A DNA stretch of 64,000 bases from Deltaproteobacteria bacterium (GCA_034439895.1 JAWXBF010000013.1:1888-65887); one strand, 5' to 3'; positions 7,358 to 58,660 are shown, counted from the stretch's first letter. The notes: generated from the letters alone by a model not told the origin. Made by a program: numbers and translations.

Positions 7358-8872
7358 ATGGAAACGAACTGGATGAAACCTCTGTTCAAGTGCAGCGCCG
7401 TGGTGGGTGCCCTGGTTATCGGAACCCTCGGCTGCGACTGGCGAAAGCTGGATGAAGCGGTTAGCAACGCCCCCGTCGTCGCCGTCGAGGCACCCGGTGG
7501 ATACGCCGCGGATGACGTGGGGCGTTTGATCGTACCGTTGCCTTACGATCCGACCACGCCGGCTGTGATTGGGCGCTACGCGTTTTTCGGACAGACCCGC
7601 TCAAGCGGTGGTGTGGCGGAATTCGATGCAGCCGGGAAGGTCTCGGTCTACGCCATTCCGGACGCAGCCCTTTCACCGATTATGGCGGAATCGATTAACT
7701 CCGCCATCTGGGTCGGACCCAGGGCGGGGACGTTGTTGGTGGGCACCCAGGGTTTCGGCGGTGCAGCGGATTCGGGTGCAACCTGGTTCCTGGAGATCGC
7801 CTTCGCACCCGGGGCTGCACCCGTTTTTGCGATTACACCGCATGTCTCGACCGTTCCTCCCAACGATGCTGTGGAACCGACTCCGGACAAATTCTGGGGT
7901 GCGGCACTTGCGGTGGGCGAGGTGACTGGCAATGCCTTTGCAGACCAGGTCGGAATGAGCCGTGACCACGTGGTCCTCATCGAAGACGGCCTCACGAGTG
8001 ACCCGAGTAAGCCTCTCATTTCCACCAGCGGGACCAACTGCGAGGTTTCCCTCGACCTCTTCACCCTGGGCGACGGGCGTGTGAAAGTGCCCCGGCCCCT
8101 GGCCATCGCGGACATCGCGGTGGGTGGCGCTTCCGAGATCCTGGTGGGGTTGCCATACGGCGTGGCGCCCAACAAGGGTGCGGTTCGCATCATGCGCAAG
8201 GTGCCGAAGGATCCGCTGAACCCAGCGCTCGGTTCTACCCTCGACTGTCCCAACGAGTTTGTCGCCGCGCCCGATGCAACACCCGAGAGCGCCGCCGGTT
8301 TCGGTTCGTCGATCGCGCCGCTCGATCTGGATGGCGATGGCAAAGACGAATCGCTGCTCGTCGGGTCGCCTCCCGATCGGGCCTACATCATCAAGGGCCC
8401 GATCGCTGTCGATGAAGATACGCTCAAGCGCAATTTGCATGCGCCGATTCCTGCGCAAATTACCGTGTTCCCACCTGCGCCCGCCGCGTCGTTCGGCCTC
8501 CGCGTTGACGCATTTGATTTCGACGGCCAACCGGGAGACGAAATCATCGTTTCGGCGCCCGACCAGGCTGATGGCACCAAGGCACAGGCCGGCCAGGTGT
8601 TTATATTCAAGTGGGACCCGGTTACAAGCAAGGCCATCTACCGGTCGTCGGTGAAAGACAACCAGAGCGAATCGCTTGCGATGTTGGGGTACGACATTGC
8701 GGGCATGCCGTTCGAGACACCCGCATGTGCAGGAACGGCGAAGGCCCCTCAAAAAGGAACGCTGTTGTTGGCGGGGACCCGTGCGGAGATCTTCACCTAT
8801 TTCCGAACGCCCGTCGCGCCCGGAATCGCCACACCGTTGTTGGCCGAAGTTCCCGATCCGCGCTGTCAGTAA
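7358..8872 (+). CDS. Lipoprotein with FG-GAP/integrin-alpha-like repeats
   Basis: Lipobox ALVIGTLGC. Repeated DLDGDGKDESLLVGSP / FDFDGQPGDEIIVSAP motifs (FG-GAP Ca-binding-like). 3-nt gap from the upstream gene. Confidence 0.55.
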   Translation: METNWMKPLFKCSAVVGALVIGTLGCDWRKLDEAVSNAPVVAVEAPGGYAADDVGRLIVPLPYDPTTPAVIGRYAFFGQTRSSGGVAEFDAAGKVSVYAIPDAALSPIMAESINSAIWVGPRAGTLLVGTQGFGGAADSGATWFLEIAFAPGAAPVFAITPHVSTVPPNDAVEPTPDKFWGAALAVGEVTGNAFADQVGMSRDHVVLIEDGLTSDPSKPLISTSGTNCEVSLDLFTLGDGRVKVPRPLAIADIAVGGASEILVGLPYGVAPNKGAVRIMRKVPKDPLNPALGSTLDCPNEFVAAPDATPESAAGFGSSIAPLDLDGDGKDESLLVGSPPDRAYIIKGPIAVDEDTLKRNLHAPIPAQITVFPPAPAASFGLRVDAFDFDGQPGDEIIVSAPDQADGTKAQAGQVFIFKWDPVTSKAIYRSSVKDNQSESLAMLGYDIAGMPFETPACAGTAKAPQKGTLLLAGTRAEIFTYFRTPVAPGIATPLLAEVPDPRCQ

Positions 8873-12378: not shown

Positions 12379-13899
12379 ATGAAATTTCGGTCGCTATTGG
12401 TTAGTCCGGTGTTGTTCGCGCTGTTGTTTGCATGCTCGGACAGAGTGGCGCTCGACCTCCAGCCGAACGGAGGCACAGTCCCGACCGATTTTCCGAACGG
12501 GGGCGACATCGGCGTGATGGTTCCAGGACCTACCGGCGGAACCGGCGGCGGCGTGGTAGGCGGGACTGGCTCGGGTCCAACCGGTGGAACCAACGGCGGT
12601 GGTATCACCGTGGAACCAGGTTTTATAGATTTCGGTTTGGTCGCCGTGGGGTCTCAGATCTCGCGCTCGTTCACCATTCGCAATACAGGGTCCACGCCGC
12701 TCGCCCCGCTTGAGCTTCTATTTGGAGCCAATGCGACCCAATTCAGCCTAACAGACAATTGTGTCATCCCGCTCGCGCCTTACGTGTCGTGTGTGGTTTC
12801 GGTTTGGCTTACACCCACCGCTCCCGGCGTGGTGACTACAACGTTGACCGTGTCGTCGGCGACCGCGTCGTTTGTGGTGAAGCTATTCGGCTCCAGCGGC
12901 GGTCCGCCCTCGATCGCGTTGTCACCGAGCAGCCACGCGTTCGGAAACGTCGATCTGAATGCCACCAGCTTGCCGTCGTGGCAGTTCACCGTCACTGCGA
13001 CAGGAGGCACGCCCGGGACATATACCGGTGCTTTGTCGCTCACGATTCCAACCGGATTCAAGGTTGGGAAGGATACCTGTACAGGCCAGTCGCTTTCGCG
13101 TAACGGGGGTTCGTGCACGTTGCTTGTGCTGTCCGACGGCCGACCCGGGGTTTACAACGGTACGTTACGTGTGACGTCCGCCATGGGTGGTGAGGCGCTC
13201 GCTACGCTTACCATGTTCGCTTCGGGCGGTATGGTGACAGGCATGATCGGACACTGGCAGTTTGATGAAGGCTTCGGTACGGTCGTCAAGGACAGCTCGG
13301 TCAATGCGAATCACGGAACGGTTCGCCAGGGATCAACGTCGTCGGCCGCATTGCACCCCGCGCCGGTATGGGAAAGCGGCAAGAAGGGCCGTGCGCTGCG
13401 CATCGACGGGCTCGACGATTGGGTTAACGTTCCCGATTCGGATAGTATCGACAACACCGGTATCAACAATCAGGTTTCGATTTCCGCCTGGATCAAACTG
13501 GACCGGTACAACTCGCGCAGGCCGTACAACGTTGTGGCTCAGCGTCACATGGTTGGCACCCGTGTTGAGCAGTTCTTCATGGGTCTCAACAATGGCGCAC
13601 CGGCTGTTGGTATCAGCTTCTTCTATGGCATTGGTATAACCAACGTTCCGCTGAACGAGTGGGTGCACATGGCGATGACTTACGACGGCATCCAATAGTG
13701 CGGCTACATGAACGGCGTCGTGTTCGTCTGTCAGGACGTGGGCTGGCCTACCGCAACCGACAAAACGCCCTTCACCATGGGTGCTGGCATCGCCGTAGAA
13801 GATATCGACGAGCATATGGTTGGCCTCATCGACGAGGTCCGCCTGTACGACATCCAACTGTCGCCAGCGCAAATAGCCGGCTTGTACAACGCGCCCTAG
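12379..13899 (+). pseudogene. Lipoprotein with ASH/'choice-of-anchor' beta-sandwich and C-terminal LamG (concanavalin-like) domain, interrupted by an in-frame TAG at 13696-13698
   Basis: Lipobox LLFAC. Gly-rich linker. ...TYDGIQ*CGYMNGVVFV... then FTMGAGIAVEDIDEHMVGLIDEVRLYDIQLSPAQIAGLY fit the LamG consensus (TYDG..lrlYvNG....ftiGa...f.G.iDEvRiYnraLsaaEI). ORFs 12310..13698 and 13708..13899 are in the same frame, separated only by the TAG. Confidence 0.6.
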
Positions 13900-14996: not shown

Positions 14997-15890
14997 TCAC
15001 GTCCCCGGAATCACGCGCTGAAACAACAGCGTCAACGCAAAACACCCCATCGCCATGAACGACAACGCCACCGTTCCACTGGCCGACAGAAACATCGCAT
15101 CCAGCAGGCTGATGCTGGCAATGAGCCATGGAACAGCAAAGCGCGGATTCGATTTGCGCTTACCAAGGCCAACCGCTGCCGCAACACCAATTGCGACTGC
15201 AACCGAGTACGCAAGGCTAACCGCCAGTCCCGCCAGCGAGATTTGCAACACGATTGCACCAAGCACAATCGGCACCAACATCAGCAACACTGGCCAGGTG
15301 CGACCCAGCGCGGCCTTGGTTTCGTGTTTCGCAATATAGGAAAGCCCGATCAAATGACAAAGCAACAGACCGGCCCCAATATACAGCAATGACTGGGGCG
15401 ACCCCGCTGTCCATCCCGCCGTGATGTAGACCGCCACGCGGCACAGTCCCATTAACAGCGGCGACAAAGCGTTCTTTTTGTGATGCAGATCGTAAGCCAG
15501 AATCAAACCCGTCAACGCGAGCGTCGCAAGGAAAGGGCGCCACGAAAAAAACATCCCAAGCCCCGACATCGTGCCCACAATCCCTACGCCCGCTGCCATC
15601 AAAACACCACCCAACACAAACACCGCCGTCGCCGAGATCAACCCCGCCGGAATCGGACGTTCCTTCCGGTGTTGAGCATCCCACCCCCGATCAAAGGCAT
15701 CGTTCAACACCATGCCGGCAACGTAAAGCAGCGACATCGCGATCGCCAGCGGAAGCAAAATTCGCAGATTAAGCGAGGCACCCGCAAGTGCAGCACCCGC
15801 AAATACGTTGGTCCACACCGTGGGCAGGTTTGAAACTCGCCCCAGTACCAGCACCGTTCGAAGGATCGATTGCGGCTTTGCGAGCGTCAT
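14997..15890 (-). CDS. UbiA-family aromatic prenyltransferase (EboC-like)
   Basis: Polytopic membrane protein. Asp-rich motif region LNDAFDRGWDAQHRKERPIPAGL (NDxxDxxxD-like). Start at MTLAKPQ, whose ATG overlaps the upstream stop as ATGA. Confidence 0.75.
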   Translation of the reverse strand: MTLAKPQSILRTVLVLGRVSNLPTVWTNVFAGAALAGASLNLRILLPLAIAMSLLYVAGMVLNDAFDRGWDAQHRKERPIPAGLISATAVFVLGGVLMAAGVGIVGTMSGLGMFFSWRPFLATLALTGLILAYDLHHKKNALSPLLMGLCRVAVYITAGWTAGSPQSLLYIGAGLLLCHLIGLSYIAKHETKAALGRTWPVLLMLVPIVLGAIVLQISLAGLAVSLAYSVAVAIGVAAAVGLGKRKSNPRFAVPWLIASISLLDAMFLSASGTVALSFMAMGCFALTLLFQRVIPGT

Positions 15891-17101
15891 CGTTGTTGTT
15901 CCACAACCCACTCCAGTTCGCGCGCGATCGCTTCGTCCACTGGCATGGCGCGGAGTTCGGCTGGCAACACGTCCCAGGTATAGGTCTCGACCTCAAGGTG
16001 TTGCGAAAGCGGTTCCCGATGGTGATGCGCCAGCAATTCGCGCACGAAATCGCCCGTGTTGTTGAACCCCGGACACAACCCCATCAAATTCGACTGAAAC
16101 AGAGGCACATGGAAATGAACTCGCCACCGTTCGTCACGCGGGCTCGGGTGTGCCGCCAGTGCTTCCGACAGATCCAGAAAACGTTGCAGACCACCCGCAG
16201 CATCCTGAATCACCGTTTGGTGTAGGTACACACCCTCCTCACCAAAACGTCGTAACACAGCAAGGCCTTCGGGCGAAGCCGGATAAAGCTCAAGGCCCGC
16301 CGTTATTTGCAATTTCAGGATCCGGACACCCGATTGGCGCACGCACGAAAGAATATCCGCGATCGACTCAAATTCGACTGCGGCGTGACAGGTATCCAGG
16401 CAGATACCGACGTGTCGCCGCAACGCAAGCTTTGCCTCGGCCAAAGATAGTCCCATTTGACCGGCCAGTGACTGCGCCGCTGCGTCTGAAAAAATCCACT
16501 CCGAAATGAAGTCGATCGCCTCGGCGTTGGTTTCCAGCAGACAATGCGGTTCAGGTTCAAGCGCGATTCCGATGATGGGTCCGCCCTCTTGGACGATTCC
16601 GACCAGGGTGGCAGCATGGCGGACGATGTTTTGCGCAATCGTCGCACGGACGCCCTCGCCATCGCGCAGGCGGAAACAACCAGGTACCGTGCTGATCGAG
16701 CCTTCAAGATCACCCGTTCTCGGCAGAAGGGCCGCCAGCAATCGCGCAAGTCTGTCGCTGTAGGTGACGCGTTCCTCCTCGGTCCAGTCCGGGCGGTAGA
16801 CCTGTTCCTTGACCGGTTGACCGTGAAAGGGGCCGTAGGGAAAGCCGTTGATCGTAAATACGTACATTCCCGACTCGGCGAGAAATTCGCGAAACGCCTG
16901 CAGCGTCGACGGTTCTTCCAGTTCAAGAGCCGCTTTTGCGGATAACCGCAATCCGATGCCGAAAGGGGCGTTCGGACTGACCCGCGCTTTCACGGAAACC
17001 GTGTGACGTTTCAGGTTGGCGAGGACCTCGGCCCAGCTTTCGCCCGGGTGGATGTTCGTGCAGTAGGTCAGATGACCCGCACGCGACCCCGCTTGCTTCA
17101 T
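15887..17101 (-). CDS. TIM-barrel sugar-phosphate isomerase/epimerase-like protein (EboE-like, xylose-isomerase-like fold)
   Basis: About 400 aa, HLTYCTNIHPGESWAEV... The size and the context between the DHQS-like and UbiA genes match EboE. Family assignment is by context and fold-level resemblance, not verified. ATGA overlap at both ends. Confidence 0.45.
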   Translation of the reverse strand: MKQAGSRAGHLTYCTNIHPGESWAEVLANLKRHTVSVKARVSPNAPFGIGLRLSAKAALELEEPSTLQAFREFLAESGMYVFTINGFPYGPFHGQPVKEQVYRPDWTEEERVTYSDRLARLLAALLPRTGDLEGSISTVPGCFRLRDGEGVRATIAQNIVRHAATLVGIVQEGGPIIGIALEPEPHCLLETNAEAIDFISEWIFSDAAAQSLAGQMGLSLAEAKLALRRHVGICLDTCHAAVEFESIADILSCVRQSGVRILKLQITAGLELYPASPEGLAVLRRFGEEGVYLHQTVIQDAAGGLQRFLDLSEALAAHPSPRDERWRVHFHVPLFQSNLMGLCPGFNNTGDFVRELLAHHHREPLSQHLEVETYTWDVLPAELRAMPVDEAIARELEWVVEQQR

Positions 17102-18345
17102 GCGCCAAGCGCCTCGCGCCGGGCGGAAGGCGCAACCGCGAGCTCCATTGCGCGATAGATCGCCTCGAAGCGTTCGACGGAAAGCGCGTGGACCTCGGTG
17201 CCCTTGCCGATGGCGGCCAGCATGGTGACGGTCAGATCTCCGCCCAGGTGCTCGCGGAAGTCCTCGATCCCAGCAAATACAGCGCGCTTGCCGTCAGGAC
17301 CTAACAACAACAGGGCTTCATGCCAGACGGGAAGTCCCAGCATACGCAACACGGCATCGATACGCACGGCGGCGGCCTCGGACAGTAGTCCAATCGCAGC
17401 CGAGTAACGACTGTCGGTGCCGATGCCAATGCCCACGGCCTCGCCGTGTCGCAATTCGTGGTGAGTCAACGATTCCAGCTTGTGAGCAGACCAATGTCCG
17501 AAATCCAGGGGCTTGGCACTGCCAAGCTCGAAAGGATCGCCGCCCTCTGCGATGTGTTGTAGATGCAGTTCGGCGCACCGTCGTACGAGATGTGCCACGG
17601 CTTCGGGTTGGCCGGTCGCGAGGGCGGGGGCGTTGCCCTCGATCCAGTCAAAAAACGCGGCATCCCGGATCAGGGCGACCTTGACTGCCTCGGCGTAGCC
17701 GGCGATTCGATCGCGTGCGGACAGCGTTGCCAGTAGATCAAAGTCGTTGATGACCGCAAAGGGTGGAAAAAATGTTCCGAGGTAATTCTTGGCGCCAAAG
17801 GCATTGACCCCGTTTTTGACCCCGACACCGGAATCGTTCTGGGACAGCACCGTGGTCGGCATGCGAACGGTGCGGACGCCGCGATGAATGGCTGCGGCTG
17901 CGTATCCAACCGCGTCGAGTACCGCGCCCCCACCCACGATCACCACGAACGACTGCCGATCGATTCGGTGCTCGAAAAAGGTGGTGTGCAACTTTGCGAG
18001 CAAGGTCGGATCGTTTTTGCAGGCTTCGCCGCCCGGAAACGACAGGGGAGCCGTGACCAGTTCGAGACGATCGGCGTGGGAACGGAAGTAGTTCTCGATG
18101 GCGCCCGTCAAATCCGGGTTCAGTTCAAGGACGCCGGCATCCACGATCACGATCGCGCGATGTCGGCGCTTTGGCTCAAGCGCCGTCAAGGTACGGACCA
18201 GCGACGGATTCGCGGGATCAAACGCGCCGCGCGTAAAACACACGTCGTAGCCGAAGGGCACCGCGAACTGCTGGCGGAGCGTGCCGGTCGAGTCCATTCG
18301 TTCATAGATAACATGTGACAGCCTGGGAGCCTTCGTCCCGAACAA
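17098..18345 (-). CDS. 3-dehydroquinate-synthase-like sugar phosphate cyclase (EboD-like)
   Basis: DHQS-family motifs VIVGGGAVLDAVGYAAA, GVRTVRMPTTVLSQNDSGVGVKNGVN and metal-binding H..E....H region. 415 aa. Confidence 0.7.
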   Translation of the reverse strand: MFGTKAPRLSHVIYERMDSTGTLRQQFAVPFGYDVCFTRGAFDPANPSLVRTLTALEPKRRHRAIVIVDAGVLELNPDLTGAIENYFRSHADRLELVTAPLSFPGGEACKNDPTLLAKLHTTFFEHRIDRQSFVVIVGGGAVLDAVGYAAAAIHRGVRTVRMPTTVLSQNDSGVGVKNGVNAFGAKNYLGTFFPPFAVINDFDLLATLSARDRIAGYAEAVKVALIRDAAFFDWIEGNAPALATGQPEAVAHLVRRCAELHLQHIAEGGDPFELGSAKPLDFGHWSAHKLESLTHHELRHGEAVGIGIGTDSRYSAAIGLLSEAAAVRIDAVLRMLGLPVWHEALLLLGPDGKRAVFAGIEDFREHLGGDLTVTMLAAIGKGTEVHALSVERFEAIYRAMELAVAPSARREALGA

Positions 18346-20849: not shown

Positions 20850-21929
20850 ATGACCCTATTTCGCGCGTTACTGATCCTGGTTTGCTCGGCCCACGTTGCT
20901 GGTTGTTCCCGTACACAACGGCCGCTGCACCCCCGGTCGATCGAATTTCAACGCCGCGGCGCCGAGGCACTTGCCCAGTCCGAATTTGATCGCGCAGCGG
21001 GTCTATTTTCCCTGGCGCTTGAATACGAACCTCGACTGCCCGAGGCTCACAACGGACTTGGATTGGTGGCACGAACGCGCGGGGATACGTTGTTGGCGGA
21101 AACGCTTTTTCGCCGCGCGCTCGCGATCAACCCGAACTTTGCCGAAGCCCACGTGAACCTCGGATGGATTCAATTTGAACGGCACAATCTTCCACTGGCC
21201 GCCCAACATTTCTCCCAGGCCCTCGCAATCGATCCGGGTTTTCCCGTGGCCAGGTTGGGCGCGGGGCAGACCGAACTCAGTCGAGGCCGACTCGAGACGG
21301 CGCACTGGCATCTTCGAAAACTCGTTGAGGTAAAACCGCGCGATGCGCACGGACATGGCGCATTGGCGCTTGTGCTCGCACGTCTGGGTCGGCCTGCCGA
21401 TGCGGAAGCGGAAGCACAAAGGGCGCTCGATCTTGAATCTGAAAATGCACTGGCGCACCGCGCGCGCGGCGAGATATTGATGGCAGGAGGACACGCGGAG
21501 GCCGCTGCGGAAGCCTTTCACAGAGCCTTGCATACCGATCCATCGGATGTCGATGCGCGACTGGGTCTTGCGACGGTCTTGATTGAAAAGGGTGATTTCA
21601 GTGCGGCCGCGGGTGAGCTTGAGCGGGCGCACGAATCCGCCCCCGAACGCGTCGAGGTGGCCTTCGTGCGTGCGTACCTTGAACTGCGACACAACAATCC
21701 GATGGGTGCGGAAAAAGCCGCGCGAGAAGCGCTACAAATGAACGCAGATTTTGTCGCCGCGCAGTTGATCCTGGCCGAGGCGCTATTGCGTCAGTCACGC
21801 AAAGTCGAAGGCCGCTCGACCCTGGTCGCATTCATCCGGTCCGCGCCGAATACCATGGAAAGGCAACGCGCCGCCGCCCAATCCTTGCTCGACGCGATGG
21901 ATCGGGGCGACAACGTGTACGGACGCTAG
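20850..21929 (+). CDS. TPR-repeat lipoprotein
   Basis: Signal/lipobox LILVCSAHVAGC. About eight TPR units (AHNGLGLV..., AEAHVNLGWI..., ALAHRARGEIL...). Confidence 0.6.
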   Translation: MTLFRALLILVCSAHVAGCSRTQRPLHPRSIEFQRRGAEALAQSEFDRAAGLFSLALEYEPRLPEAHNGLGLVARTRGDTLLAETLFRRALAINPNFAEAHVNLGWIQFERHNLPLAAQHFSQALAIDPGFPVARLGAGQTELSRGRLETAHWHLRKLVEVKPRDAHGHGALALVLARLGRPADAEAEAQRALDLESENALAHRARGEILMAGGHAEAAAEAFHRALHTDPSDVDARLGLATVLIEKGDFSAAAGELERAHESAPERVEVAFVRAYLELRHNNPMGAEKAAREALQMNADFVAAQLILAEALLRQSRKVEGRSTLVAFIRSAPNTMERQRAAAQSLLDAMDRGDNVYGR

Positions 21930-22480
21930 TTGCCGTGTCGTTTGGTGGGTACCGCGCCGATTCCCAGGCAACCGCCACACAACGGGATGCAGTTCGAGCG
22001 AAAGTCGCGGGTCACCCGCCATGAAGAACCACAGGCGACGCAGTTGAGGTTGCTGGTATTGGGGCGACCCACCGATGCCACGTCGAGGTTGTTCAAGGTT
22101 TCACGCGTCACCATGCCGACCAGAAATTGCCCCGTCACGACGGGCAAACAATCGACGGCGTTTTCGTCCATGATTCCTTCGGCTTCATCCACCGTGGTTT
22201 CGGGCGAGATACACAATACGGGCGAGCTCATGCAATCGGACACCATCGTGCCTGAACGCGCCGAGTGCAGGTCGCGATCGCAAACGATTCCGGTCAAACC
22301 ACCGTCGTCCACAACCAGAAAGAAGTTTACCTTCTTGTTGTCGGCAAGCCGAAGGGCGGCCGCGACGCCGGTGTCCGGTGTAACCGTAAAAAGATGCGTT
22401 CCCATCACTTCCGCAACCGAGCGGGACTCCGCGTCTTCCGCATTCGATTCCGATCGGCTCACCTTGCGATTGCTCGACAT
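21926..22480 (-). CDS. CBS-pair domain protein with C-terminal CxxC...CxxC zinc-ribbon-like tail
   Basis: Two CBS motifs (HLFTVTPDTGVAAALRL..., VSDCMSSPVLCISPETTVDEAEGIM). C-terminal NCVACGSSW...CIPLCGGC. Start at MSSNRK. Confidence 0.6.
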   Translation of the reverse strand: MSSNRKVSRSESNAEDAESRSVAEVMGTHLFTVTPDTGVAAALRLADNKKVNFFLVVDDGGLTGIVCDRDLHSARSGTMVSDCMSSPVLCISPETTVDEAEGIMDENAVDCLPVVTGQFLVGMVTRETLNNLDVASVGRPNTSNLNCVACGSSWRVTRDFRSNCIPLCGGCLGIGAVPTKRHGN

Positions 22481-22726
22481 GGTCTGCTCCTTTGGATTGG
22501 ACGCCCGGGTTGCGACGCCCACCCAATGAATCGCCCGAAAACCTGCGTCGCTTGGGGGTTGGATGCTTCAAGTCCCGTGCCAGATTCACGATCGTTGTGA
22601 TTACAGGTGGTTGGGCTATGCCGCGGCGAGCGGATCACCCGGAGATCTGACACGACTGTCAGGGTTTGCCCCCAAACTGTTGCGATCACATCTGCGACTT
22701 TTGCCCACCTACCGGCAAGGCAATGT

Positions 22727-24679
22727 TCAGTAGTCGATCGACAATTCGAGACCGACGGTGTGTTTCTCGAAGTTTTTGTCATCGAACGCGAATTCAACTG
22801 TGCTGCCGTTGTGCACGTAGTCATAGCGAAGGCCAAGGTCAACGTAGTCGCCTACCGGGTAGGCGAAGCTGACGGCCGTGGCAAATCGATTGTCTTTTCG
22901 GCGCAAGCGCATTTCGGTGCTGCGACCAAACGGGCCCGAGACTCGCAACACATTGTCGCCCTGGTAAGCAATCCTCTCGAAACTGAGTTCGACGGACAGA
23001 CGCAATTGCCCCCACGGCGTCGTCGTTCCGCTGATCGTTGCTGCATTCGAATGGTACGAATACGGCACGGTGTAAATGCCGGTCAGATTCTGTCGAACCG
23101 CTCCCAGATCAAGTTCGCGCGTGCCGATGTTTTCTCGCCGCGAACGCAATGAAACGTTTGCCCTTGCGCTTCGATAGCGGAACCGTTGTGTCAGCCGCAG
23201 GTCGCGTCGGGTACCTTCGTACAGGTCAAAGTCCGGATCCAGGGCGTTTTTTCTCGCCATTCGTAGTTCAAGCCAGGTGCTGGTGAAATGTCCTTCTTCC
23301 AGTCCAATCGACGGCATCAGCGAGAACACCGAAAGGAAGGGTGCAAAGGTTTCGATGCCCGCGATCTGGTATTCGCCCGACAGACCCAATCCTGCGTGAA
23401 ACGCGCCCGTTACGGTTTCGCTCAACAACGATGCATTGTGGACCTGCAAGCTAAAGTCATCCGCATCGGGATTCGAATACGCGATCTGATCGAGGGCGTA
23501 GCTTCCTTGCAAGGAAAACGCATCACGCCATTTGTGGGTGTAAACGGCTTCGGCGCTGGTCGTGAAGAAAAAGCTTTCCTTGTCGCCGTATTCCGCGTTG
23601 ACAACGTCGCTGCGCAGACCTCCCATAAGCAACACGTTCGAATCGTACCCGGATCCCGCCTGCGCCTGTAGCACCAACCCCGTGTTCTGCGCGGACAATC
23701 CCCATCCCAGCGCGGCTCGATAGGTTTGTGCCAGCGCTGCCGTTTCAGGGTCGATCTTCAAGTTCAAGGCGCGATCGAGATGGATTCGGGCTTCGTCGGC
23801 GCGATCGAGTCGGTAGTTCGCCATGGCGGCCTGATAGTGAAAGTCGGGATCATCTTCTGACAGCAACGCCGCTCGATTCAGGTGAAACCGTGCCACCTCG
23901 AAATTCCGCTGTCGGTAGTAGATCAATCCCAGCGCGAATTCGAGTTCGGCGCGATCGACAGCGGTGGCGCCGCGGGCTTCGGCCTCGGCAAGAGCCTTCT
24001 GGTAGAGCGCGATCGCCTCATGGGTTTTGCCTTCCCGGGTGGCCCGACTTCCGCCGTCGAGCGCGGCATCGATGTGGGTTTTCAATTCCAGCGTCGCTGC
24101 TTCGTCGATGTCCTGTTGCAATTCTTCGACATCTTCTTTGAACGCGTCCCGGTCGGGGGCTTGTTGCACCTCGGCCAGATGTTGTTTTGCCCGCGGGATC
24201 GTTTGTGCGTCGAAAGCGGCCTGTCCGGCATTGAGCAACGCAAGCGTCGAAAGCTCCGGCGCAAACTTGGCTGCCATCACAAAGGCCTGTTCGGCATCGA
24301 CATAGCGCTCAAGGGCGTAGTAGGTGGCCGCTTCGTTGAAGAACAACGACCCTTTGGAAGGCGGGTTCTGGGACTGCTTGGCCGCCGCAAAGGCTCGCAA
24401 CGCCTCTTCGTATCGTGTGGCACGAAAGCGCGCCATACCCAGTACGAAAAGAGCAGCGCCGTCGCCAGGCCGTGCGTCCAACATTGCGATGGCGCGGAAC
24501 GCCGCCCCATCGAAATCACCCGCTTTCATCAACCTTCGCGCACCGTCGAGCGGATCAAGCGCCGCTTGCCGGGTGGTGTCTTCCTGCGCCGAAGTGGGGA
24601 CTTGCGACCAAGCGCTGTCAGGCCCAACGAGAGCTAGCACGATCGCGAGCGTCAGGGATGGGCCCCGGGTTCGACTCAT
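22727..24679 (-). CDS. Outer-membrane protein: N-terminal TPR domain plus C-terminal beta-barrel (PgaA/BcsC/Slam-like architecture)
   Basis: Signal peptide LTLAIVLALVGPDSAWS. About 330 aa of TPR repeats. About 320 aa of alternating-hydrophobic beta-strand pattern ending in the aromatic residue ...LELSIDY*. Last gene of the ECF-sigma operon. Confidence 0.55.
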   Translation of the reverse strand: MSRTRGPSLTLAIVLALVGPDSAWSQVPTSAQEDTTRQAALDPLDGARRLMKAGDFDGAAFRAIAMLDARPGDGAALFVLGMARFRATRYEEALRAFAAAKQSQNPPSKGSLFFNEAATYYALERYVDAEQAFVMAAKFAPELSTLALLNAGQAAFDAQTIPRAKQHLAEVQQAPDRDAFKEDVEELQQDIDEAATLELKTHIDAALDGGSRATREGKTHEAIALYQKALAEAEARGATAVDRAELEFALGLIYYRQRNFEVARFHLNRAALLSEDDPDFHYQAAMANYRLDRADEARIHLDRALNLKIDPETAALAQTYRAALGWGLSAQNTGLVLQAQAGSGYDSNVLLMGGLRSDVVNAEYGDKESFFFTTSAEAVYTHKWRDAFSLQGSYALDQIAYSNPDADDFSLQVHNASLLSETVTGAFHAGLGLSGEYQIAGIETFAPFLSVFSLMPSIGLEEGHFTSTWLELRMARKNALDPDFDLYEGTRRDLRLTQRFRYRSARANVSLRSRRENIGTRELDLGAVRQNLTGIYTVPYSYHSNAATISGTTTPWGQLRLSVELSFERIAYQGDNVLRVSGPFGRSTEMRLRRKDNRFATAVSFAYPVGDYVDLGLRYDYVHNGSTVEFAFDDKNFEKHTVGLELSIDY

Positions 24680-25143
24680 TGCGCTCGTCGGGGCGAGGCG
24701 ATTCGATTGGCTCTGATTTCGCGCACGCGATCGCGAAGCCGTTGCCGTCGTTCGCGGACACGCGAAGGATCTCGCCGTTGCGATCGCAACTCTGCCCGGC
24801 GCTCACTTGCAGCAGGCTCCGCTCCGCCCAACTGGACCTTCTCGATCGGGAGTGGCTTTTCCGCGTTGTCGAATCGGGGTGTCGCGGGATCGGCCTTTTG
24901 CTGCCGACGTTCGGCTCGAATCCGGCTAATCACATCTTCGAAGGCTTCGCCGTCGTCAACCAGCGTTACGGTCGTACGACCCGCTCGTACCCGCCGTCGC
25001 TCTTGCCGCTCCTCCCGTCGAGCTTCGCGTTTTTCCAGGCGCTCGTCTATGGGCGATGGTTGTTTATCATCGGCAAGCGCAACACCCATTGGTCCGAAGC
25101 TCAGCATCGCAAGGGTTACCACTGTCATCGTGGAACGTTTCAT
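24676..25143 (-). CDS. Secreted Arg/Glu-rich low-complexity protein
   Basis: Signal peptide MKRSTMTVVTLAMLSFGPMGVALA. Mature part dominated by RRE/ERR runs. 4-nt overlaps with both neighbours. Confidence 0.5.
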   Translation of the reverse strand: MKRSTMTVVTLAMLSFGPMGVALADDKQPSPIDERLEKREARREERQERRRVRAGRTTVTLVDDGEAFEDVISRIRAERRQQKADPATPRFDNAEKPLPIEKVQLGGAEPAASERRAELRSQRRDPSRVRERRQRLRDRVREIRANRIASPRRAQ

Positions 25144-25790
25144 GATGCACCTTCCACCTGAAGCAAGATCTCCTGTTCGATCACCTGATCCGCGATCTCG
25201 GCCCGCGCCTTGACGCGATAAAGTCCTGGCTTTTCACCCCGCACGGCAACCGGTAATACGTTTTCACCGGCCTCAAGGGTACCGGGCCAACGAAAGCGCC
25301 GTTCGGCCATCGCTTCCCCCTTGCTAGAGAACGACAACCCTTCGGGCAGATCTACCTCGAACGTGACGTCTTCGACGCGGACTTCGGCGGTGAAGTTCAG
25401 GTGGATGACCGCGGTTCGCGACGAGGGCACGCTGTGGGCGAGGGCAGGGGCTGGTGCGATCTCTGCGATTTTCGGCATCGCCACGGTTGTCGTTGTCGTC
25501 CCGGTCGTCGCCATTTCGGCGGGCGGGTGCTGCATCGCCATCAAAAACGCAAACGTTGCCGCTCCGGTTGCGACGCCAACCGCAGGCCAGCCGAGCGCCG
25601 GATGTTCAGCAAACCACTGGCGTGCACGCTCGAACCAACCTTGCGGCTCCGGCGGTCCCGCTGCCACCAGTGTGCGATGCAGTCCCATCCGGAAATCGCG
25701 CCCGGGCAGGTCCTCAACGTGCGCCCGCAGCGCGCGCAGACGACGGCTGATATCCGCGTCGTCGTTGTGATTCAGATCGTTGGGATTCAT
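25140..25790 (-). CDS. Anti-sigma factor (single-pass membrane protein)
   Basis: Located directly 3' of the ECF sigma with ATGA overlap. N-terminal cytoplasmic helix region. One TM helix (PALGWPAVGVATGAATFAFLMA). Periplasmic C-terminal domain. Confidence 0.55.
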   Translation of the reverse strand: MNPNDLNHNDDADISRRLRALRAHVEDLPGRDFRMGLHRTLVAAGPPEPQGWFERARQWFAEHPALGWPAVGVATGAATFAFLMAMQHPPAEMATTGTTTTTVAMPKIAEIAPAPALAHSVPSSRTAVIHLNFTAEVRVEDVTFEVDLPEGLSFSSKGEAMAERRFRWPGTLEAGENVLPVAVRGEKPGLYRVKARAEIADQVIEQEILLQVEGAS

Positions 25791-26419
25791 CGGGTGCCTC
25801 TCGGTGCCAGGGGGGCTTCGTTGGGTTGGACGAGCTCGGATCGGTCAAGGTTCCGCTCGGACCCCAACAATCGACGCAGGTGTTCACGGGCTCGGTTTAG
25901 CCGGGACTTGACGGTCCCCAGCGCAACCTTTTCGATGGCCGCGATCTCGTCGTGGGACATCCCTTCGATATCGAACATGACGATGGTGCCTCGAAACTCG
26001 GGGGGCAATTGTTCGATGGCGCCCCACACCCGACGTCGTTCCTGTTCCTGTTCCAGACGGTGATCGGGCTGATTGGGCCCGTGGCCATCCAGATCAACCT
26101 GATCGTGCGTCCCAACCGTATAACTTTCTTCGACCGCGCGATTCCGGTGCGCACGGCTTTTCATTTCATCCAGAAATACGTTTCGAACGATCGCATAAAG
26201 CCAGGTCGAGAAGGCCGACGCAAAACGATAACTATTGATGGACTTGTACACCTTGATGATGGCGTCCTGAGCCAGATCGTCGGCCGCTGCGTCATCTTGT
26301 GCAAATGCGCGGGCGAAACGGCGGACTCGATCCAGGTGTTGGCCGATCAACGTCTCGAAAGCCCCCACATCGCCGCCCTGCGCCCTGGCAATAAGGTTGC
26401 GCTGAACATCGAGATCCAT
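25787..26419 (-). CDS. ECF (sigma-24 family) RNA polymerase sigma factor
   Basis: Region 2 (DDLAQDAIIKVYKSINSYRFASAFSTWLYAIVRN). Region 4 HTH (GMSHDEIAAIEKVALGTVKSRLNRAREHLR). Start taken at MDLDVQ; the 25787..26485 ORF extends further 5'. Confidence 0.85.
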   Translation of the reverse strand: MDLDVQRNLIARAQGGDVGAFETLIGQHLDRVRRFARAFAQDDAAADDLAQDAIIKVYKSINSYRFASAFSTWLYAIVRNVFLDEMKSRAHRNRAVEESYTVGTHDQVDLDGHGPNQPDHRLEQEQERRRVWGAIEQLPPEFRGTIVMFDIEGMSHDEIAAIEKVALGTVKSRLNRAREHLRRLLGSERNLDRSELVQPNEAPLAPRGTR

Positions 26420-26665
26420 CGATGTGTTGGGCGCGACCAGCTGGGCTTCATTTTCGTTCATGTTGATGAAGGTGGCCTCTGCCATGACATCGTTAGACGA
26501 CAGGCGGATGTTAAAGGTTCCCGGCGCAAGTCATTGAAAAAAGACGAGAAAATAAGTTTCTTTCGGGAACGTCGGGCCGCGGGATTCCGTCCTACGGACA
26601 GAACGAAACCAATCCGGTGCGAACGCAAAGCGTCCCCGGGGAACCCAACTGAGGAGAACGACACC

Positions 26666-27094
26666 ATGAAAACGATTCTTTTGACCGCCTTCCTTTGCTT
26701 GCCAGCCACCCTCGCTTTCGCTGAGCCCACACCAGCCGCCGCGGGAGCCGGTGAAGTGCGTGCGGATATTCGCGAGATTCGTCAAGATCGCCGAGAGCTG
26801 CACCAAGACCGCAAGGAGATTCGAGGCGACAAAAAAGAGCTGCGTCAGGATCGCAAGGAGATCCGCGGTGACAAGCAAGCGATGCACGCGGCGGCCGCGT
26901 CGGGCGATCGAAAGGCCTTCGCTGTGGCTCGCCACGAAATGCGCCAGGATCGCCGCGAGATGCGCCAGGATCGTCGTGAGTTGCGCGGCGACAAGCGTGA
27001 ATTGCACCAGGATCGTCGCGAGTTGAATCGCGACCGCCGCGAAACCCGTGGCGATATCCGTCAGGCTCGGCAGGCTCGCCGGGCCGGAAACTAA
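26666..27094 (+). CDS. Small secreted protein built of ~11-residue charged repeats (RQDRRELxxDRKEIRGDK)
   Basis: GAGGAG RBS 10 nt upstream of ATG 26666. Signal peptide MKTILLTAFLCLPATLAFA. The mature protein is all R/E/D/K heptad/undecad-like repeats. The underlying DNA is a ~33-bp imperfect tandem repeat. The annotated 25952..27094 ORF is an artefactual 5' extension, antisense to the sigma gene. Confidence 0.55.
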   Translation: MKTILLTAFLCLPATLAFAEPTPAAAGAGEVRADIREIRQDRRELHQDRKEIRGDKKELRQDRKEIRGDKQAMHAAAASGDRKAFAVARHEMRQDRREMRQDRRELRGDKRELHQDRRELNRDRRETRGDIRQARQARRAGN

Positions 27095-27172
27095 TTCGGC
27101 AAAAAGCAGTACCCCGTGGCCCGGATCCCTGAAACACAGGGGTTCGGGCTTTTTGTTGTATCGTGCGACGCC

Positions 27173-27943
27173 ATGAATCGCGTTGTCACTCGAATGCTCC
27201 CAGCACCCCTGTTGCTGGGTCTATTTTTCTCGTCTCCGACCGCTGCGGCACCGCCGGCCAAAACGGCTGCGGGGTTGCGCTTTGCTGCGAACGACAAACT
27301 GATCATCATCGGCGATTCGATCACGGATGCAGGTCGCAAACCTTCGGGCGAGGGATTGTTCGATGCCGTCGGCAAGGGGTGGGTGGCTCTTGTCGACGGT
27401 CTGCTTGGATCAGCCTATCCGGCGTTGCAGATCCGGGTCATCAACAAGGGCACAAGTGGTCACACCACGCGCGATCTAAAAGCGCGCTGGGACGCCGACG
27501 TTTTGGCGCCTTCGCCGCAGTGGGTGGTGGTCATGATCGGCACCAACGACGTGTGGCGACAGTTCGATGTGCCACGAATGAAGGAAGACGCCGTGCTGAT
27601 CGACGAGTACGAGAAAAACTTGGATGAACTCGTCAGCAAGACGATTCCTCGGGTCAAGGGCATGATCTTGATGACGCCGTTTTATATCGAGCCCAACAAG
27701 GGCGATGCGATGCGCGCCACGATGGATCGCTATGGCGCCGTGGTGAAGAAGCTCGCGGTGAAGTACAAGACGATGTTTGTCGACACCCAGGCTGCCTTTG
27801 ATGCCCTGATGCCGCATTATTATCCCGCGACGATCGCCTGGGATCGCGTGCATCCGAATCACATCGGCACAATGGCCCTGGCGCGTGCGTTTCTGGGGGT
27901 GGTTGGCTTTTCGTGGACCGGAGCGCCGTCGTTGAAGCATTGA
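27173..27943 (+). CDS. Secreted SGNH/GDSL-family hydrolase (lipase/acylesterase-like)
   Basis: Signal peptide, then block I LIIIGDSITDAG (catalytic Ser), block III GTND, and a C-terminal D..HP block (DRVHPNHIG). Confidence 0.8.
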   Translation: MNRVVTRMLPAPLLLGLFFSSPTAAAPPAKTAAGLRFAANDKLIIIGDSITDAGRKPSGEGLFDAVGKGWVALVDGLLGSAYPALQIRVINKGTSGHTTRDLKARWDADVLAPSPQWVVVMIGTNDVWRQFDVPRMKEDAVLIDEYEKNLDELVSKTIPRVKGMILMTPFYIEPNKGDAMRATMDRYGAVVKKLAVKYKTMFVDTQAAFDALMPHYYPATIAWDRVHPNHIGTMALARAFLGVVGFSWTGAPSLKH

Positions 27944-27967: not shown

Positions 27968-28744
27968 CTAATCCTTCGACAGCCCACCCAACCAGTCGAG
28001 CTCGCCGTCCATCGTGTCCAGCAACCCCATCCCGCGCTTGATCCAACCGCAAACGTAATACATATACCCCGTTGGCGCCTTCGGGTCTAGCAGCGACCGG
28101 GCGTTATCCAAAAAGTATTGATCCGCGTTCGGTCGCTTGAGCTCGAAGCCCGAACGGTAGGTGGCGTCGTAGCGCCTGCGGACCTGTTCGCAGCCCCGGT
28201 TGATGAGCGCCATTGCGGTGCCGTCGTTCTGGAAGTAGGTGAGCGACAGCTGGGTCGAGTCGCGTTCGACCGCGTACAGCGAACGATTCGCGTAAACCCA
28301 TCCCACCGACGACGACTCGTACATGAACTGTTTGGCGCCCTGTCCGACGACGAAAAATCGATAGAAAAAGAATTCGTAGTACTGGCGCGCTTCTTCGGCA
28401 TTTATGGCGTTGAACCAGGTCTTGATGAGATCCCGCTGTTTCTGCGACAGGTTTTCCCAGGCCGAGATGTGCACCGTCTGATCGCCCAGATTGGCCACAA
28501 GGATAAACTCCTTGAACGAAACGTCGATTTTTTCGCGATTGATGATCGAACTCACGCTGTAGTCCGTGTAGTTCTCGACCTGCTGGTTGAATGATCGCAG
28601 CTCGGTCAACACGCGATCCACGACGGTTTGTTCCGGAGGTGTTAACTCCGCGAACGTGGGGCGTTCGTTGGTGACCGTAAAGTCGCCACACGCCAACAGC
28701 AACAACAGGCCAAGGATTGCCGTTTTAGAAATGAAATGCGACAT
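27968..28744 (-). CDS. Hypothetical lipoprotein (compositionally atypical, lower GC)
   Basis: Lipobox LLLLLACGD. F/Y/N-rich sequence. Local GC is visibly lower (~52-55%) than the ~65% flanks. No recognisable domain. Confidence 0.45.
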   Translation of the reverse strand: MSHFISKTAILGLLLLLACGDFTVTNERPTFAELTPPEQTVVDRVLTELRSFNQQVENYTDYSVSSIINREKIDVSFKEFILVANLGDQTVHISAWENLSQKQRDLIKTWFNAINAEEARQYYEFFFYRFFVVGQGAKQFMYESSSVGWVYANRSLYAVERDSTQLSLTYFQNDGTAMALINRGCEQVRRRYDATYRSGFELKRPNADQYFLDNARSLLDPKAPTGYMYYVCGWIKRGMGLLDTMDGELDWLGGLSKD

Positions 28745-29711
28745 AGGCTGGCACCTCCAGTCTGTCGACCATGGCAACCGGCCGCAAGGCCTTGATGTCG
28801 ATGATCTCCGGGCCGCTGACGCGAGACATGTTGAACACGTGGTACCGAACTCGGATGCCCACGCTCAGCCAGCCCGTGAGTTGTTTGCCCAGCGTGAACC
28901 CGCCGCCAACGCCGGTGGTCCAGGTCGACTCTTGAAGCGGGTGAATCACAAGGTAACCACCAAAGACCGCGTCCAGGGACAAAAGCCAATCGCTGCTCGG
29001 CGACGTAAGGCGGAAGGTGGGACCGAGGGTGGTGTTGACGGCCCAGAATGCAATGCCCGTATCACCGAGACCTTGCCGGTATGGGTTTTCCGAACCGAAG
29101 ACGGCCAGCTCAAGACCGATTCGGCGGGTCAACCAGGCGCCAAGTTCCACTCCGCCGCCCATCCCGGCTTCCATGTCCGGGTCCACGAGCAAGGACGAGC
29201 CGCCGAAACTGACAGCGAAACGGAAAGGTCCGCTGCTCGGTTGATCTTCCGGTTCGGCGAACGGATCGAGTCGCTCGACGATAACCGGGCCGTCCTGCGT
29301 TTCCACGGGCCGCGGACGGCGTGGGCGTGCGGCGGGTCTCGGTACCTTCGGAACTGGCGTTTGGGGAAAGCGGGAATGAGAGGGCCGTGCGACGGTTCCC
29401 GGGGTGAGGATCGGCGCAGGAACAGGCAGCGGGTTCGTGGCAACCGTCGGTAGCGGGTTCGTGGCAACCGGTGGTAGCGGGGCGGGAGGCGGAGCCGGGA
29501 TGGCAACCGGTGGTGGCGTCGAGGGTCCGAAACTGCGGGCGGGCCGAACAACGGAATTCGCGGCTGAGGGGGCCAGGGCAGGTAACGGGGCTCCCCTGAC
29601 GAAAGGCCTGGATGGGCGGGCGATCGGTGCGGGTGCCGCATTTTGGGCGTGAGCGGTCGGCACGATGGTGATCGCGATCGCAATCCCGAGTGGCAATCCG
29701 AACCGCCTCAT
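28725..29711 (-). CDS. Outer-membrane beta-barrel protein with Pro-rich N-terminal linker
   Basis: Signal peptide LPLGIAIAITIVPTAHA. Long P/A-rich low-complexity region. C-terminal ~180 aa amphipathic beta-strands ending ...YVAFHF* with a C-terminal Phe. A 21-bp coding tandem repeat (VATNPLP x2). Confidence 0.5.
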   Translation of the reverse strand: MRRFGLPLGIAIAITIVPTAHAQNAAPAPIARPSRPFVRGAPLPALAPSAANSVVRPARSFGPSTPPPVAIPAPPPAPLPPVATNPLPTVATNPLPVPAPILTPGTVARPSHSRFPQTPVPKVPRPAARPRRPRPVETQDGPVIVERLDPFAEPEDQPSSGPFRFAVSFGGSSLLVDPDMEAGMGGGVELGAWLTRRIGLELAVFGSENPYRQGLGDTGIAFWAVNTTLGPTFRLTSPSSDWLLSLDAVFGGYLVIHPLQESTWTTGVGGGFTLGKQLTGWLSVGIRVRYHVFNMSRVSGPEIIDIKALRPVAMVDRLEVPAYVAFHF

Positions 29712-29857
29712 TCCGCTCCGATATCTATTACGATGACCGACCAAAACCTTTCACGTCGCTCAACATTATCGAAACAATTCTACTCCGATGGTCTAGTTTA
29801 CGCCCCCCGAACGCGCCATGCTGGTCGCTGTATCGGTCTTACTAGGTTCAAACGGCT

Positions 29858-43171: not shown

Positions 43172-43819
43172 TTGCCAGTCGACCTTCACAGTATTCCGAC
43201 CGAATCCGTCCGCGGCGACGGAGGCGATCCCGTCGGCGATGAAAACGACTCGGCTTTGGTCTCCCGCTGTTGCCGAGGTGACCACAGCGCCTGGCGGGCG
43301 CTTTACGATCGCCATTTCCGGTCGGTTTACCGCTTCGTCAGTTCACTCGGTGTTCCCATCTCCGAACGCGAAGACGCAACCCAGGACGTGTTCATTGCGA
43401 TCTACCGCAGCTTGCCGAGATTTCGGGGCGATTCGCGTTTTTCAACGTGGGTGTATCGCATCACAGCCCGCCATGTTTCGCGCCTCGCACGACGGCGGCG
43501 GGCGAGGGAAATGCTGGGCGTATTGTTGCTCCGGGAGCCAACCCGAAATAGTCCGCAGGATCTGGCCGAGCAACACAGCGACGCGGATTTTGTGGATCGC
43601 CTGCTTTCACGACTCAACCCGAAGAAGCGGACCGCACTGGTGTTATTTGAGGTCGAAGGGCTTTCTGTCGAGGAGATCGCTCAGGTCGTCGATTGCCCCG
43701 TGAACACCGTCTGGTCGCGTATTCACCACGCCCGTTCCGAGCTCGCGAAGCTTGCCAGGCTGGCGGTGCGCGATGATTTGCGACCCGCCGCTTCGGTCCG
43801 CGCCGAGGGCGAACCATGA
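43172..43819 (+). CDS. ECF-family RNA polymerase sigma factor
   Basis: Region 2 DATQDVFIAIYRSLPRFRGDSRFSTWVYRITARH. Region 4 GLSVEEIAQVVDCPVNTVWSRIHHARSEL. Confidence 0.85.
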   Translation: MPVDLHSIPTESVRGDGGDPVGDENDSALVSRCCRGDHSAWRALYDRHFRSVYRFVSSLGVPISEREDATQDVFIAIYRSLPRFRGDSRFSTWVYRITARHVSRLARRRRAREMLGVLLLREPTRNSPQDLAEQHSDADFVDRLLSRLNPKKRTALVLFEVEGLSVEEIAQVVDCPVNTVWSRIHHARSELAKLARLAVRDDLRPAASVRAEGEP

Positions 43820-58361: not shown

Positions 58362-58382
58362 CACAATTTAATATCGAACCAC

Positions 58383-58453: not shown

Positions 58454-58502
58454 CATTCCCGTGCTTCTTCCCTGGCTTGAAAAACTGAATATCGAACTTT
58501 CC

Positions 58503-58574: not shown

Positions 58575-58660
58575 CAACTTTTCGCCGGCGCTTGCGCGAC
58601 CTTGCGTGTCGCAAAACCGCGGGTTTCGGGTGAACCGGGGCTCGGCTCTACAAAAGCGGG

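Follow-up and report, generated by a model that had tools for sequence, protein, structure and literature searches.

What does a sigma factor of the extracytoplasmic function (ECF) type control when its operon ends in a gene for an outer-membrane protein, and what might act back on it? This question was raised by a locus of a Deltaproteobacteria bacterium (GCA_034439895.1, JAWXBF010000013.1:1888-65887), analyzed here as one stretch of 64,000 nucleotides (the window). Four consecutive genes on its minus strand, listed below, encode an ECF sigma factor, a predicted membrane-bound anti-sigma factor, a small secreted protein (here called X), and a protein in which tetratricopeptide repeats (TPR) precede a predicted beta-barrel. 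Conserved gene order, conserved promoter motifs and conserved periplasmic segments suggest that the module could be a Myxococcota-wide envelope signalling unit around the sigma/anti-sigma pair, in which the periplasmic domain of the anti-sigma factor, X and the TPR-porin act together; a probability of roughly 45% was assigned to this interpretation.

25787-26485, minus strand: ECF sigma factor gene (longest open reading frame, ORF, 232 aa; likely shorter, 224 aa from ATG 26461)
25140-25790, minus strand: predicted membrane anti-sigma factor gene (216 aa)
24676-25143, minus strand: gene of small secreted protein X (155 aa, signal peptide)
22727-24679, minus strand: gene of the predicted TPR and beta-barrel outer-membrane protein (650 aa, ending in ...SIDY)

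Gene order is conserved across Myxococcota

A genome scan yielded 21 loci, every one with a title that named Myxococcota. Their sources were a Myxococcales metagenome-assembled genome (MAG), Corallococcus, Archangium, Pyxidicoccus, Hyalangium, Vitiosangium, Myxococcaceae, Anaeromyxobacter(aceae), and a Polyangia MAG; the set did not include M. xanthus. Of the related loci, 20 extend into the upstream region, and these keep the order sigma factor, anti-sigma factor, small secreted protein, TPR-barrel protein; wherever upstream DNA was present, tblastn matches to the sigma factor and to the 216-aa protein directly preceded the barrel gene. Metagenomic relatives with the same module showed barrel identities of 44% (L001), 35% (L003), and 24-28% (L027).

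A first-pass annotation, made from the sequence alone, had described the four ORFs as a module with 4-nt start/stop overlaps at its three internal junctions. Its coordinates matched the ORF table of the window, and ATGA was read in the sequence at every junction. According to the ORF tables, 4-nt overlaps also occur elsewhere in the window (17098-17101, 43816-43819, and 56815-56818), and those of the operon are not kept in relatives, gaps of 21, 3, and 12 nt being found instead in L003. As ATGA overlaps are frequent in the genome and are replaced by short gaps in relatives, they indicate tight coupling or packing and are nothing unusual. The real evidence for linkage of the genes is their synteny rather than their overlaps. 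The span of 22727-26485 that had been proposed for the module held up insofar as its four genes, given their conserved order, appear to form one functional module; it missed a divergently transcribed gene (26669-27094) and the promoter of that gene, which lie outside it, and a promoter motif internal to the operon was overlooked as well. Scans for Rfam families and tRNAs gave no match inside the module.

Three ECF-type promoter motifs accompany the module

The search for an ECF promoter motif upstream of the sigma gene, a check that had been proposed along with the module, was successful and yielded two more copies in the module:

26496-26522, minus strand: ECF-type motif GGGAAC-N17-CGTC before the sigma gene, exact match
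25829-25854, minus strand: internal ECF-type motif GGAAC-N17-CGTC within the sigma gene's 3' tail, with its end 38 nt before the ATG (25790) of the anti-sigma gene
26565-26591, plus strand: ECF-type motif GGGAAC-N17-CGTC facing the divergent gene, exact match

In the 64-kb window, GGGAAC-N16/17-CGTC had exactly two matches, with 0.67 expected window-wide. Both, each facing outward, lie in the 183 bp that separate the sigma gene from the divergent ORF. Relaxing the motif to GGAAC gave two further matches, at 25829-25854 (minus strand) and at 13315-13340; the latter, which lies inside an unrelated ORF and within chance expectation, was rejected as a promoter. Across the loci, motif density was 2.5/kb in the 350 bp upstream of sigma, as compared with 0.12/kb elsewhere.

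The internal motif was found at the equivalent position in 20 of 20 related loci. Its reading frame, which could be compared in the 19 loci with an assignable sigma frame, showed an offset of 0 in 16 loci and of 1 in three; the offset in the window is 1. Moreover, the tail peptides encoded across the motif differ (GT..SS versus xN..LV). These two reading frames and differing peptides indicated that the internal motif is conserved at the DNA level. Beyond region 4.2, the sigma factor's C-terminal tail, which carries this motif, is itself not conserved, and may exist mainly as housing for the internal promoter.

Of 18 related loci examined, 13 have the motif that faces the divergent gene; in the window, L001, and L010, it is located 44-78 nt upstream of the ATG of this gene. 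The motif in front of the sigma gene recurred at the same place in L001, L003, L004, and L015, and was clear only there and in the clade of the window. Promoters of the type GGAAC-N16/17-CGT, which are cognate to ECF sigma factors, are thus represented at the operon itself by three motifs that are kept in relatives. Judging by motif class, position, and conservation, all three sites would be used by the sigma factor of this operon.

The sigma factor belongs to the ECF group

The sigma protein matched the Pfam families Sigma70_r2 (62 bits, 4.7e-17), Sigma70_r4_2 (49 bits, 3.7e-13), and Sigma70_ECF (24.6 bits against a cutoff of 21.1, 2.7e-5), as well as the NCBIfam model for the sigma70-ECF superfamily (TIGR02937, 103.7 bits against a cutoff of 42.9). 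With only the sigma2 and sigma4 regions present and ECF profiles matched, it is a group IV (ECF) sigma factor, as the first-pass annotation had proposed. None of the named NCBIfam equivalogs included it: RpoE, SigE, SigM, and SigW were among the best matches, all of them far below their cutoffs (for the RpoE model TIGR02939, 107 against 236), and no numbered ECF group that fits this sigma factor was found in the main text of the ECF reclassification paper.

ATG 26485, with which the sigma ORF opens, is situated only 10 nt past the -10 element, and ATG 26461 approximately 35 nt past it, with a leader of roughly 28 nt. Because ATG 26485 is not in frame in L004, a relative with 86-90% identity, translation probably starts at ATG 26461, giving a protein of 224 aa.

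The predicted anti-sigma factor has a conserved periplasmic domain

In the 216-aa protein the following segments were distinguished, all encoded on the minus strand:

aa 8-62: cytoplasmic helices (short)
aa 64-86, nt 25533-25601: transmembrane helix
aa 91-112: disordered linker
aa 118-213, nt 25152-25439: periplasmic immunoglobulin-like (Ig-like) beta-sandwich of eight strands

This protein showed the general layout of an anti-sigma factor, with a gene directly downstream of that of an ECF sigma factor (an arrangement identical in all related loci), a single transmembrane helix, and a cytoplasmic N-terminus. It had no match in Pfam or NCBIfam and contained no Cys/His motif; the H-x3-C-x2-C zinc motif that characterizes the N-terminus of zinc-binding anti-sigma (ZAS) proteins was likewise not found. 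A homologue in Polyangia (L006) has an N-terminal zf-HC2 (ZAS) domain that scored above the Pfam threshold, which links the family to genuine anti-sigma factors. The first helices and the zinc motif are missing from the window protein and from most of its relatives, which retain the segment RLRALR...LHRxLVAAGPP. Based on position, topology, and the zf-HC2 domain of the Polyangia homologue, the 216-aa protein is a predicted anti-sigma factor that would bind and inhibit the sigma factor.

The beta-sandwich was the best conserved part of the protein, with invariant columns that include W168, P169, G170, and A182-R184. Such strong conservation of a periplasmic domain implies a conserved partner.

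One homologue of the anti-sigma factor, P0041, bears the precomputed Pfam accession PF27334. When 31 homologues, P0041 included, were scanned against Pfam, no family was significant; the accession on P0041 suggests that a recently created Pfam family may already cover the anti-sigma factor or its periplasmic domain.

Protein X combines a conserved short motif with a variable tail

The highly charged periplasmic protein reported earlier was recovered as X, which carries a signal peptide with cleavage after VALA24, consists for 42% of R+E+D+K with 33 Arg, and ends in an R/E-rich low-complexity tail. It contains one conserved segment:

aa 51-79, nt 24907-24993, minus strand: conserved motif of approximately 29 aa, RVRAGRTTVTLVDDGEAFEDVISRIRAER

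In 15 loci and in L027, the anti-sigma and barrel genes enclose a gene of this type, encoding a signal peptide, the motif, and a low-complexity tail. The consensus of the motif reads hV[RK]xSxxV[DT]VI[AD]..E.V[DE][TD][IV][IL].R[LM]R (approximately 25-29 residues), an example from Myxococcia being HVRSSHTVDVIAPGEQVDTILGRMR. The tail differs by lineage and is R/E-rich in the clade of the window and P/G/R-rich in Myxococcia. Searches of X against Pfam and NCBIfam gave no match. A short motif kept across the phylum next to a changing tail would be typical of a linear motif that docks on a folded partner, and both TPRs and the edges of beta-sandwiches are partners of this kind.

The 650-aa protein has the architecture, and not the sequence, of polysaccharide porins

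The terminal gene of the operon had been described as encoding a TPR domain fused to a C-terminal beta-barrel, with the architecture of PgaA, BcsC, and Slam. Structure prediction agreed with the two-domain description:

aa 44-330, nt 23690-24550, minus strand: TPR solenoid, preceded by a signal peptide
aa 334-649, nt 22730-23680, minus strand: predicted 16-strand beta-barrel with C-terminal Tyr

The AlphaFold2 model (built on 11 sequences, mean pLDDT 86.9) showed helices in aa 44-330 and 16 strands in aa 334-649, with periplasmic turns of 2-6 residues and both ends of the barrel facing the periplasm. Pfam recognized TPR families only, at residues 45-320 approximately. In a Foldseek search, BcsC of E. 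coli was the sole solved chain aligned over both domains (E 4.6e-9, 636-713 columns, TM only 0.25). Comparison of family profiles with E. coli PgaA and BcsC by hhalign gave probabilities below 1%, at the low power of single-sequence templates. None of 30 barrel domains matched a Pfam family above noise, the DUF560/Slam, PgaA, BcsC, and alginate-export barrel families included; a profile search of PDB sequences with the barrel came back empty, and the full-length profile matched generic TPR proteins only. In Pfam scans of the 650-aa protein there was no match to DUF560 or TPR_Slam, nor to PF04575 or PF24575, the accessions looked for as marks of the Slam/DUF560 (type 11 secretion) family, and 16 strands were predicted. 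Judged against the polysaccharide porins (PgaA, BcsC, PelB, and AlgE, the last with 18 strands), the protein thus shares their architecture and not the sequence of their barrels. What remained of the earlier PgaA/BcsC/Slam label was the combination of TPR and 16 strands found in BcsC and PgaA; a sequence relation and a DUF560/Slam match were not found. The case named beforehand as a refutation, membership of a known porin family (OmpG, CymA, FadL, or general porins), was not borne out at the sequence level.

Word-indexed searches found seven relatives with the full protein and five with the barrel domain. An exhaustive HMMER search with the barrel profile retrieved 341 representative clusters, 242 of which at E<=1e-10, nearly all 450-700 residues long and with the barrel at the C-terminus. 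As far as profile matches define it, the TPR-barrel protein belongs to a coherent family of moderate size, described in no library searched here. Nearly all barrel homologues end in an aromatic residue (Y/W/F; endings ...IDY, ...FDY, or ...FAW). Conserved charged residues occupy alternating, non-hydrophobic strand positions (R491, R514, R594, D596, R598, and K639). From strand alternation, the net charge of the lumen was estimated at approximately -1 (12 R, 4 K, 7 D, 10 E), a value that gave no indication of a preference for polyanionic or polycationic cargo.

A divergent gene is the variable part of the module

The outward-facing motif precedes a fifth gene, which is followed by a terminator:

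26669-27094, plus strand: divergent secreted-protein gene (141 aa, signal peptide ..LAFA/EP)
27118-27160, plus strand: intrinsic terminator after the divergent gene (hairpin 27118-27150, 14-bp stem with 9 GC pairs, then TTTTTGTTGT)

A Shine-Dalgarno sequence, GAGGAG, is located 8 nt before the ATG of this gene. In its product, which consists for 45% of R+E+D+K, the heptad [RK]E[IL][RH][QG]D[RK] is repeated in two blocks. L001 encodes a homologue with 45% identity; elsewhere, the product encoded at this position is a secreted protein with K/A/E repeats (L003), a Cys-containing lipoprotein of approximately 345 aa (Myxococcia), or a Cys-rich lipoprotein (Anaeromyxobacter). Neither the divergent protein nor these lineage-specific lipoproteins matched Pfam or NCBIfam. 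Conservation of the outward promoter, with a target that changes, fits a lineage-specific output.

In two Anaeromyxobacter(aceae) MAGs (L021:4726-6079 and L024:4753-6105, both minus strand), the divergent position encodes proteins of approximately 90 aa and 352 aa and no secreted protein. By eye, we take this pair to be PqqD-like and ATP-grasp-like. The outward-facing motif is absent from both loci. On the far side of the divergent gene, the longest ORF of a GDSL lipase (27116-27943, plus strand) opens at GTG 27116, inside the terminator hairpin; the real start of the lipase is probably a downstream ATG, at the signal-peptide-like sequence MNRVVTRMLP...

Proposed mechanism and alternative explanations

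In the proposed signalling unit, the anti-sigma factor would release the sigma factor. Freed sigma factor would then transcribe the anti-sigma-X-barrel unit from the internal promoter, as a feedback, and also the divergent gene for a secreted effector or lipoprotein effector and, in the lineage of the window, the sigma gene itself. The periplasmic domain of the anti-sigma factor, the short motif in X, and the TPR arm that extends down from the outer membrane would constitute one trans-envelope complex, which would set the stability of the anti-sigma factor in response to the state of the outer membrane or to something that passes the barrel. Such control of anti-sigma stability would be analogous to RseA-RseB and FecA-FecR signalling, without the TonB elements. 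A more specific form of this proposal, which we consider improbable, is a TonB-independent, Myxococcota-specific surface signalling system, in which the BcsC-like TPR-porin, the motif-docking X, and the Ig-like domain of the anti-sigma factor would be a single trans-envelope sensor that reports outer-membrane or surface status to the ECF sigma factor. X would then possibly be threaded through the pore or cap it, in the manner of RcsF or CsgF, and the internal promoter would provide a hard-wired feedback.

Several observations weigh against the signalling unit. The window anti-sigma factor is without the ZAS helices of its Polyangia homologue and retains the distal cytoplasmic helices only; its binding of the sigma factor is therefore a prediction. 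In Myxococcia, the region upstream of the sigma gene has no clean CGTC -10 element. One member of the barrel family (L028) sits without a sigma gene, which indicates that the barrel can work outside this circuit. The operon contains no gene for a site-1 or site-2 protease. Finally, co-transcription of the barrel protein and X would be equally expected if both were mere outputs of the regulon, and does not separate regulator from output.

The same set of genes could also encode an exporter, in which the TPR-barrel protein would be a translocon of the BcsC/PgaA/PelB type and the sigma/anti-sigma pair would only time its synthesis. Its cargo would be a polymer made elsewhere, or the charged, disordered neighbours X and/or the divergent product, threaded through the 16-strand pore to the surface. 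Consistent with such a role, the protein matches BcsC over both domains in Foldseek and PgaA by its published description (PMC9603273), the conserved charged strand residues suggest a constrained lumen, X and the divergent protein are both unfolded or extended polyelectrolytes, and in every lineage the genes of the barrel protein and X stand behind a promoter of the sigma type. However, the first-pass annotation had already remarked that no synthase or glycosyltransferase accompanies the barrel, and a scan of the large ORFs to both sides of the module found neither. More broadly, the ORFs scanned around the module and in related loci contained no polysaccharide synthase, glycosyltransferase, outer-membrane polysaccharide export (OPX), or PgaB/BcsZ-like gene, and a co-encoded synthase or processing enzyme was found neither in the scanned ORFs of the window nor in L001, L003, or L027. 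The barrel has no sequence relation to any polysaccharide porin family, and the divergent product is not conserved between lineages, which would be odd for a dedicated cargo. An exporter is less probable than the signalling unit and is nevertheless a serious alternative; the translocon that had been suggested for this locus reduces to an analogy from architecture, with no cargo indicated.

It is unlikely that the genes are co-encoded for co-expression only, as a general envelope stress regulon without a dedicated complex. The barrel protein would in that case be a stress-induced porin or structural outer-membrane protein, whose neighbours X and the divergent protein would serve in the periplasm as polyelectrolytes or as chaperone-like buffers. 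Such a regulon would fit the output gene that varies by lineage, and self-regulated ECF operons often carry their main targets (sigmaW, sigmaE, SigX-OprF; PMC7826278). Nevertheless, the same four-gene order is strictly kept across the phylum, as are the short motif of X and the anti-sigma factor's periplasmic domain, which is more than co-expression usually preserves; moreover, a TPR arm of approximately 290 residues has no role in a plain porin. Very unlikely is a function as assembly reporter, in which the TPR-barrel protein would serve as a sentinel substrate of the beta-barrel assembly machinery (BAM) and unassembled protein, building up in the periplasm upon a failure of outer-membrane protein assembly, would trigger cleavage of the anti-sigma factor by its C-terminus. 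C-termini of outer-membrane proteins trigger cleavage of RseA by DegS, and MucE does so for AlgW and MucA. These sigmaE and AlgU systems provide an analogy; in the module, the barrel gene is co-encoded with an anti-sigma gene, and the C-terminal aromatic residue is conserved in nearly all homologues. That residue is, however, generic to almost all outer-membrane proteins and thus adds no specific information, no DegS- or AlgW-like protease is encoded nearby, and X and the long TPR domain would be left without explanation.

Relation to known systems

ECF sigma/anti-sigma pairs are the commonest bacterial means of reporting envelope events, and what the anti-sigma factor senses is often obscure. 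The module resembles the RpoE-RseA-RseB(-RseC) and AlgU-MucA-MucB operons in its sequence of ECF sigma factor, single-pass anti-sigma factor, and secreted accessory protein or proteins, and in its self-regulating, sigma-type promoter of the GGAAC...-10 class. It differs from them in the periplasmic domain of the anti-sigma factor, an Ig-like sandwich unrelated to RseA; in its accessory proteins, a disordered motif protein and an outer-membrane TPR-barrel in place of RseB or MucB; and in an internal promoter, present phylum-wide, that lies in the sigma gene's 3' tail ahead of the anti-sigma unit. In FecI-FecR-FecA and SigX-CfrX-CmpX-OprF, an ECF sigma/anti-sigma pair is likewise genetically tied to an outer-membrane barrel (PMC7826278 for SigX/OprF). 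By analogy, this tie suggests a flow of information from the outer membrane to transcription. Unlike these systems, the module has no TonB-dependent transducer, FecR domain, or mechanosensitive channel.

Like BcsC, PgaA, and PelB, the 650-aa protein is a single polypeptide, in which a periplasmic TPR solenoid at the N-terminus is joined to a 16-strand barrel at the C-terminus. Its TPR domain is much shorter than that of BcsC and, unlike the genes of these porins, its gene has no synthase, cyclic di-GMP receptor, or polymer-modifying enzyme nearby and is part of an ECF sigma operon instead. Slam barrels have 14 strands, whereas 16 were modelled here. Slam proteins nevertheless resemble the window protein in having a TPR region followed by an outer-membrane barrel, beside secreted proteins or lipoproteins that could be cargo; the neighbours in the window are without the folded cargo domains typical of Slam substrates. 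The architecture of PgaA (TPR and 16-strand barrel) is described in PMC9603273 and the Slam/DUF560 family (type 11 secretion) in PMC8406197. The module resembles an RpoE-RseA-RseB or FecI-FecR-FecA circuit with a BcsC/PgaA-like protein at the outer membrane; by its sequence features, it is a member of neither class.

An ECF sigma/anti-sigma envelope module is the known part of this system; new are its undescribed set of partners and the three shared motifs, including the internal one. No description of a matching ECF/TPR/barrel module in Myxococcus was found in the literature that could be searched, rpoE1 included. The module is real and conserved, with no evidence as yet of a new principle. 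It offers a compact, phylum-wide case in which likely partners of an anti-sigma factor are encoded next door, together with a TPR-barrel family that has no Pfam model and no solved relative. The same module is present in cultured, genetically tractable relatives (Corallococcus and Archangium), and its three matching promoter motifs are ready-made reporters. The internal motif, kept in two reading frames of a coding tail, neatly illustrates how selection on the DNA can be superimposed on protein-coding sequence. If the module were an exporter, it would involve a BcsC-like porin that works without a synthase; if it were a sensor, it would represent a new route of signalling from the surface to a sigma factor.

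Neighbouring genes and further observations

The module lies among housekeeping genes and is flanked on one side by those for ComEC, a TPR lipoprotein, and a CBS protein, and on the other side by those for the GDSL lipase, two unknown genes, TilS, FtsH, and DUF2330; an ORF on the GDSL/TilS/FtsH side presumably encodes GlmM. Of these neighbours, ComEC, TilS, and FtsH are encountered again in both L001 and L003. Two neighbours were considered and rejected as members of the module: the CBS-domain gene (21926-22522), which accompanies it in the close relative L004 only, and the TPR lipoprotein gene (20850-21929), which adjoins ComEC wherever it is present (L003 and L004). Next to ComEC, a 3-dehydroquinate (DHQ)-synthase-like gene, an unknown gene of approximately 400 aa, and a UbiA prenyltransferase gene (window 14997-18345, minus strand; L003:13775-17359) may form a pathway for a quinone or another prenylated aromatic compound.

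A second, unrelated ECF module is located at 43172-46000 on the plus strand, and its FecR-type part (43172-44931) has no relation to the TPR-barrel module:

43172-43819, plus strand: sigma factor (Sigma70_r2/r4_2/ECF)
43816-44931, plus strand: anti-sigma factor with FecR domain and C-terminal TPR, 4-nt overlap with the sigma gene
44912-46000, plus strand: 362-aa protein, no family

Just upstream of it is an ORF for an unknown protein of 341 aa (42092-43117). Closer to the TPR-barrel module, an ORF at 28725-29744 (minus strand) encodes 339 aa that comprise a signal peptide, an extended region rich in Pro, and an alternating hydrophobic C-terminal part that ends in ...VAFHF; it has no Pfam family and, from these features, may be a small outer-membrane barrel. 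It overlaps as called by approximately 50 nt with an ORF at 27968-28777 (minus strand) for a secreted or lipoprotein-like protein of 269 aa, also without a Pfam family, and one of the two starts is probably wrong. A secreted protein with TPR and PEGA domains (5871-7355, plus strand) is followed by a lipoprotein-like protein with FG-GAP repeats (7358-8872, plus strand), and a tRNA cluster at 58291-58575 (plus strand) comprises Gln(CTG), Gln(TTG), and Glu(CTC).

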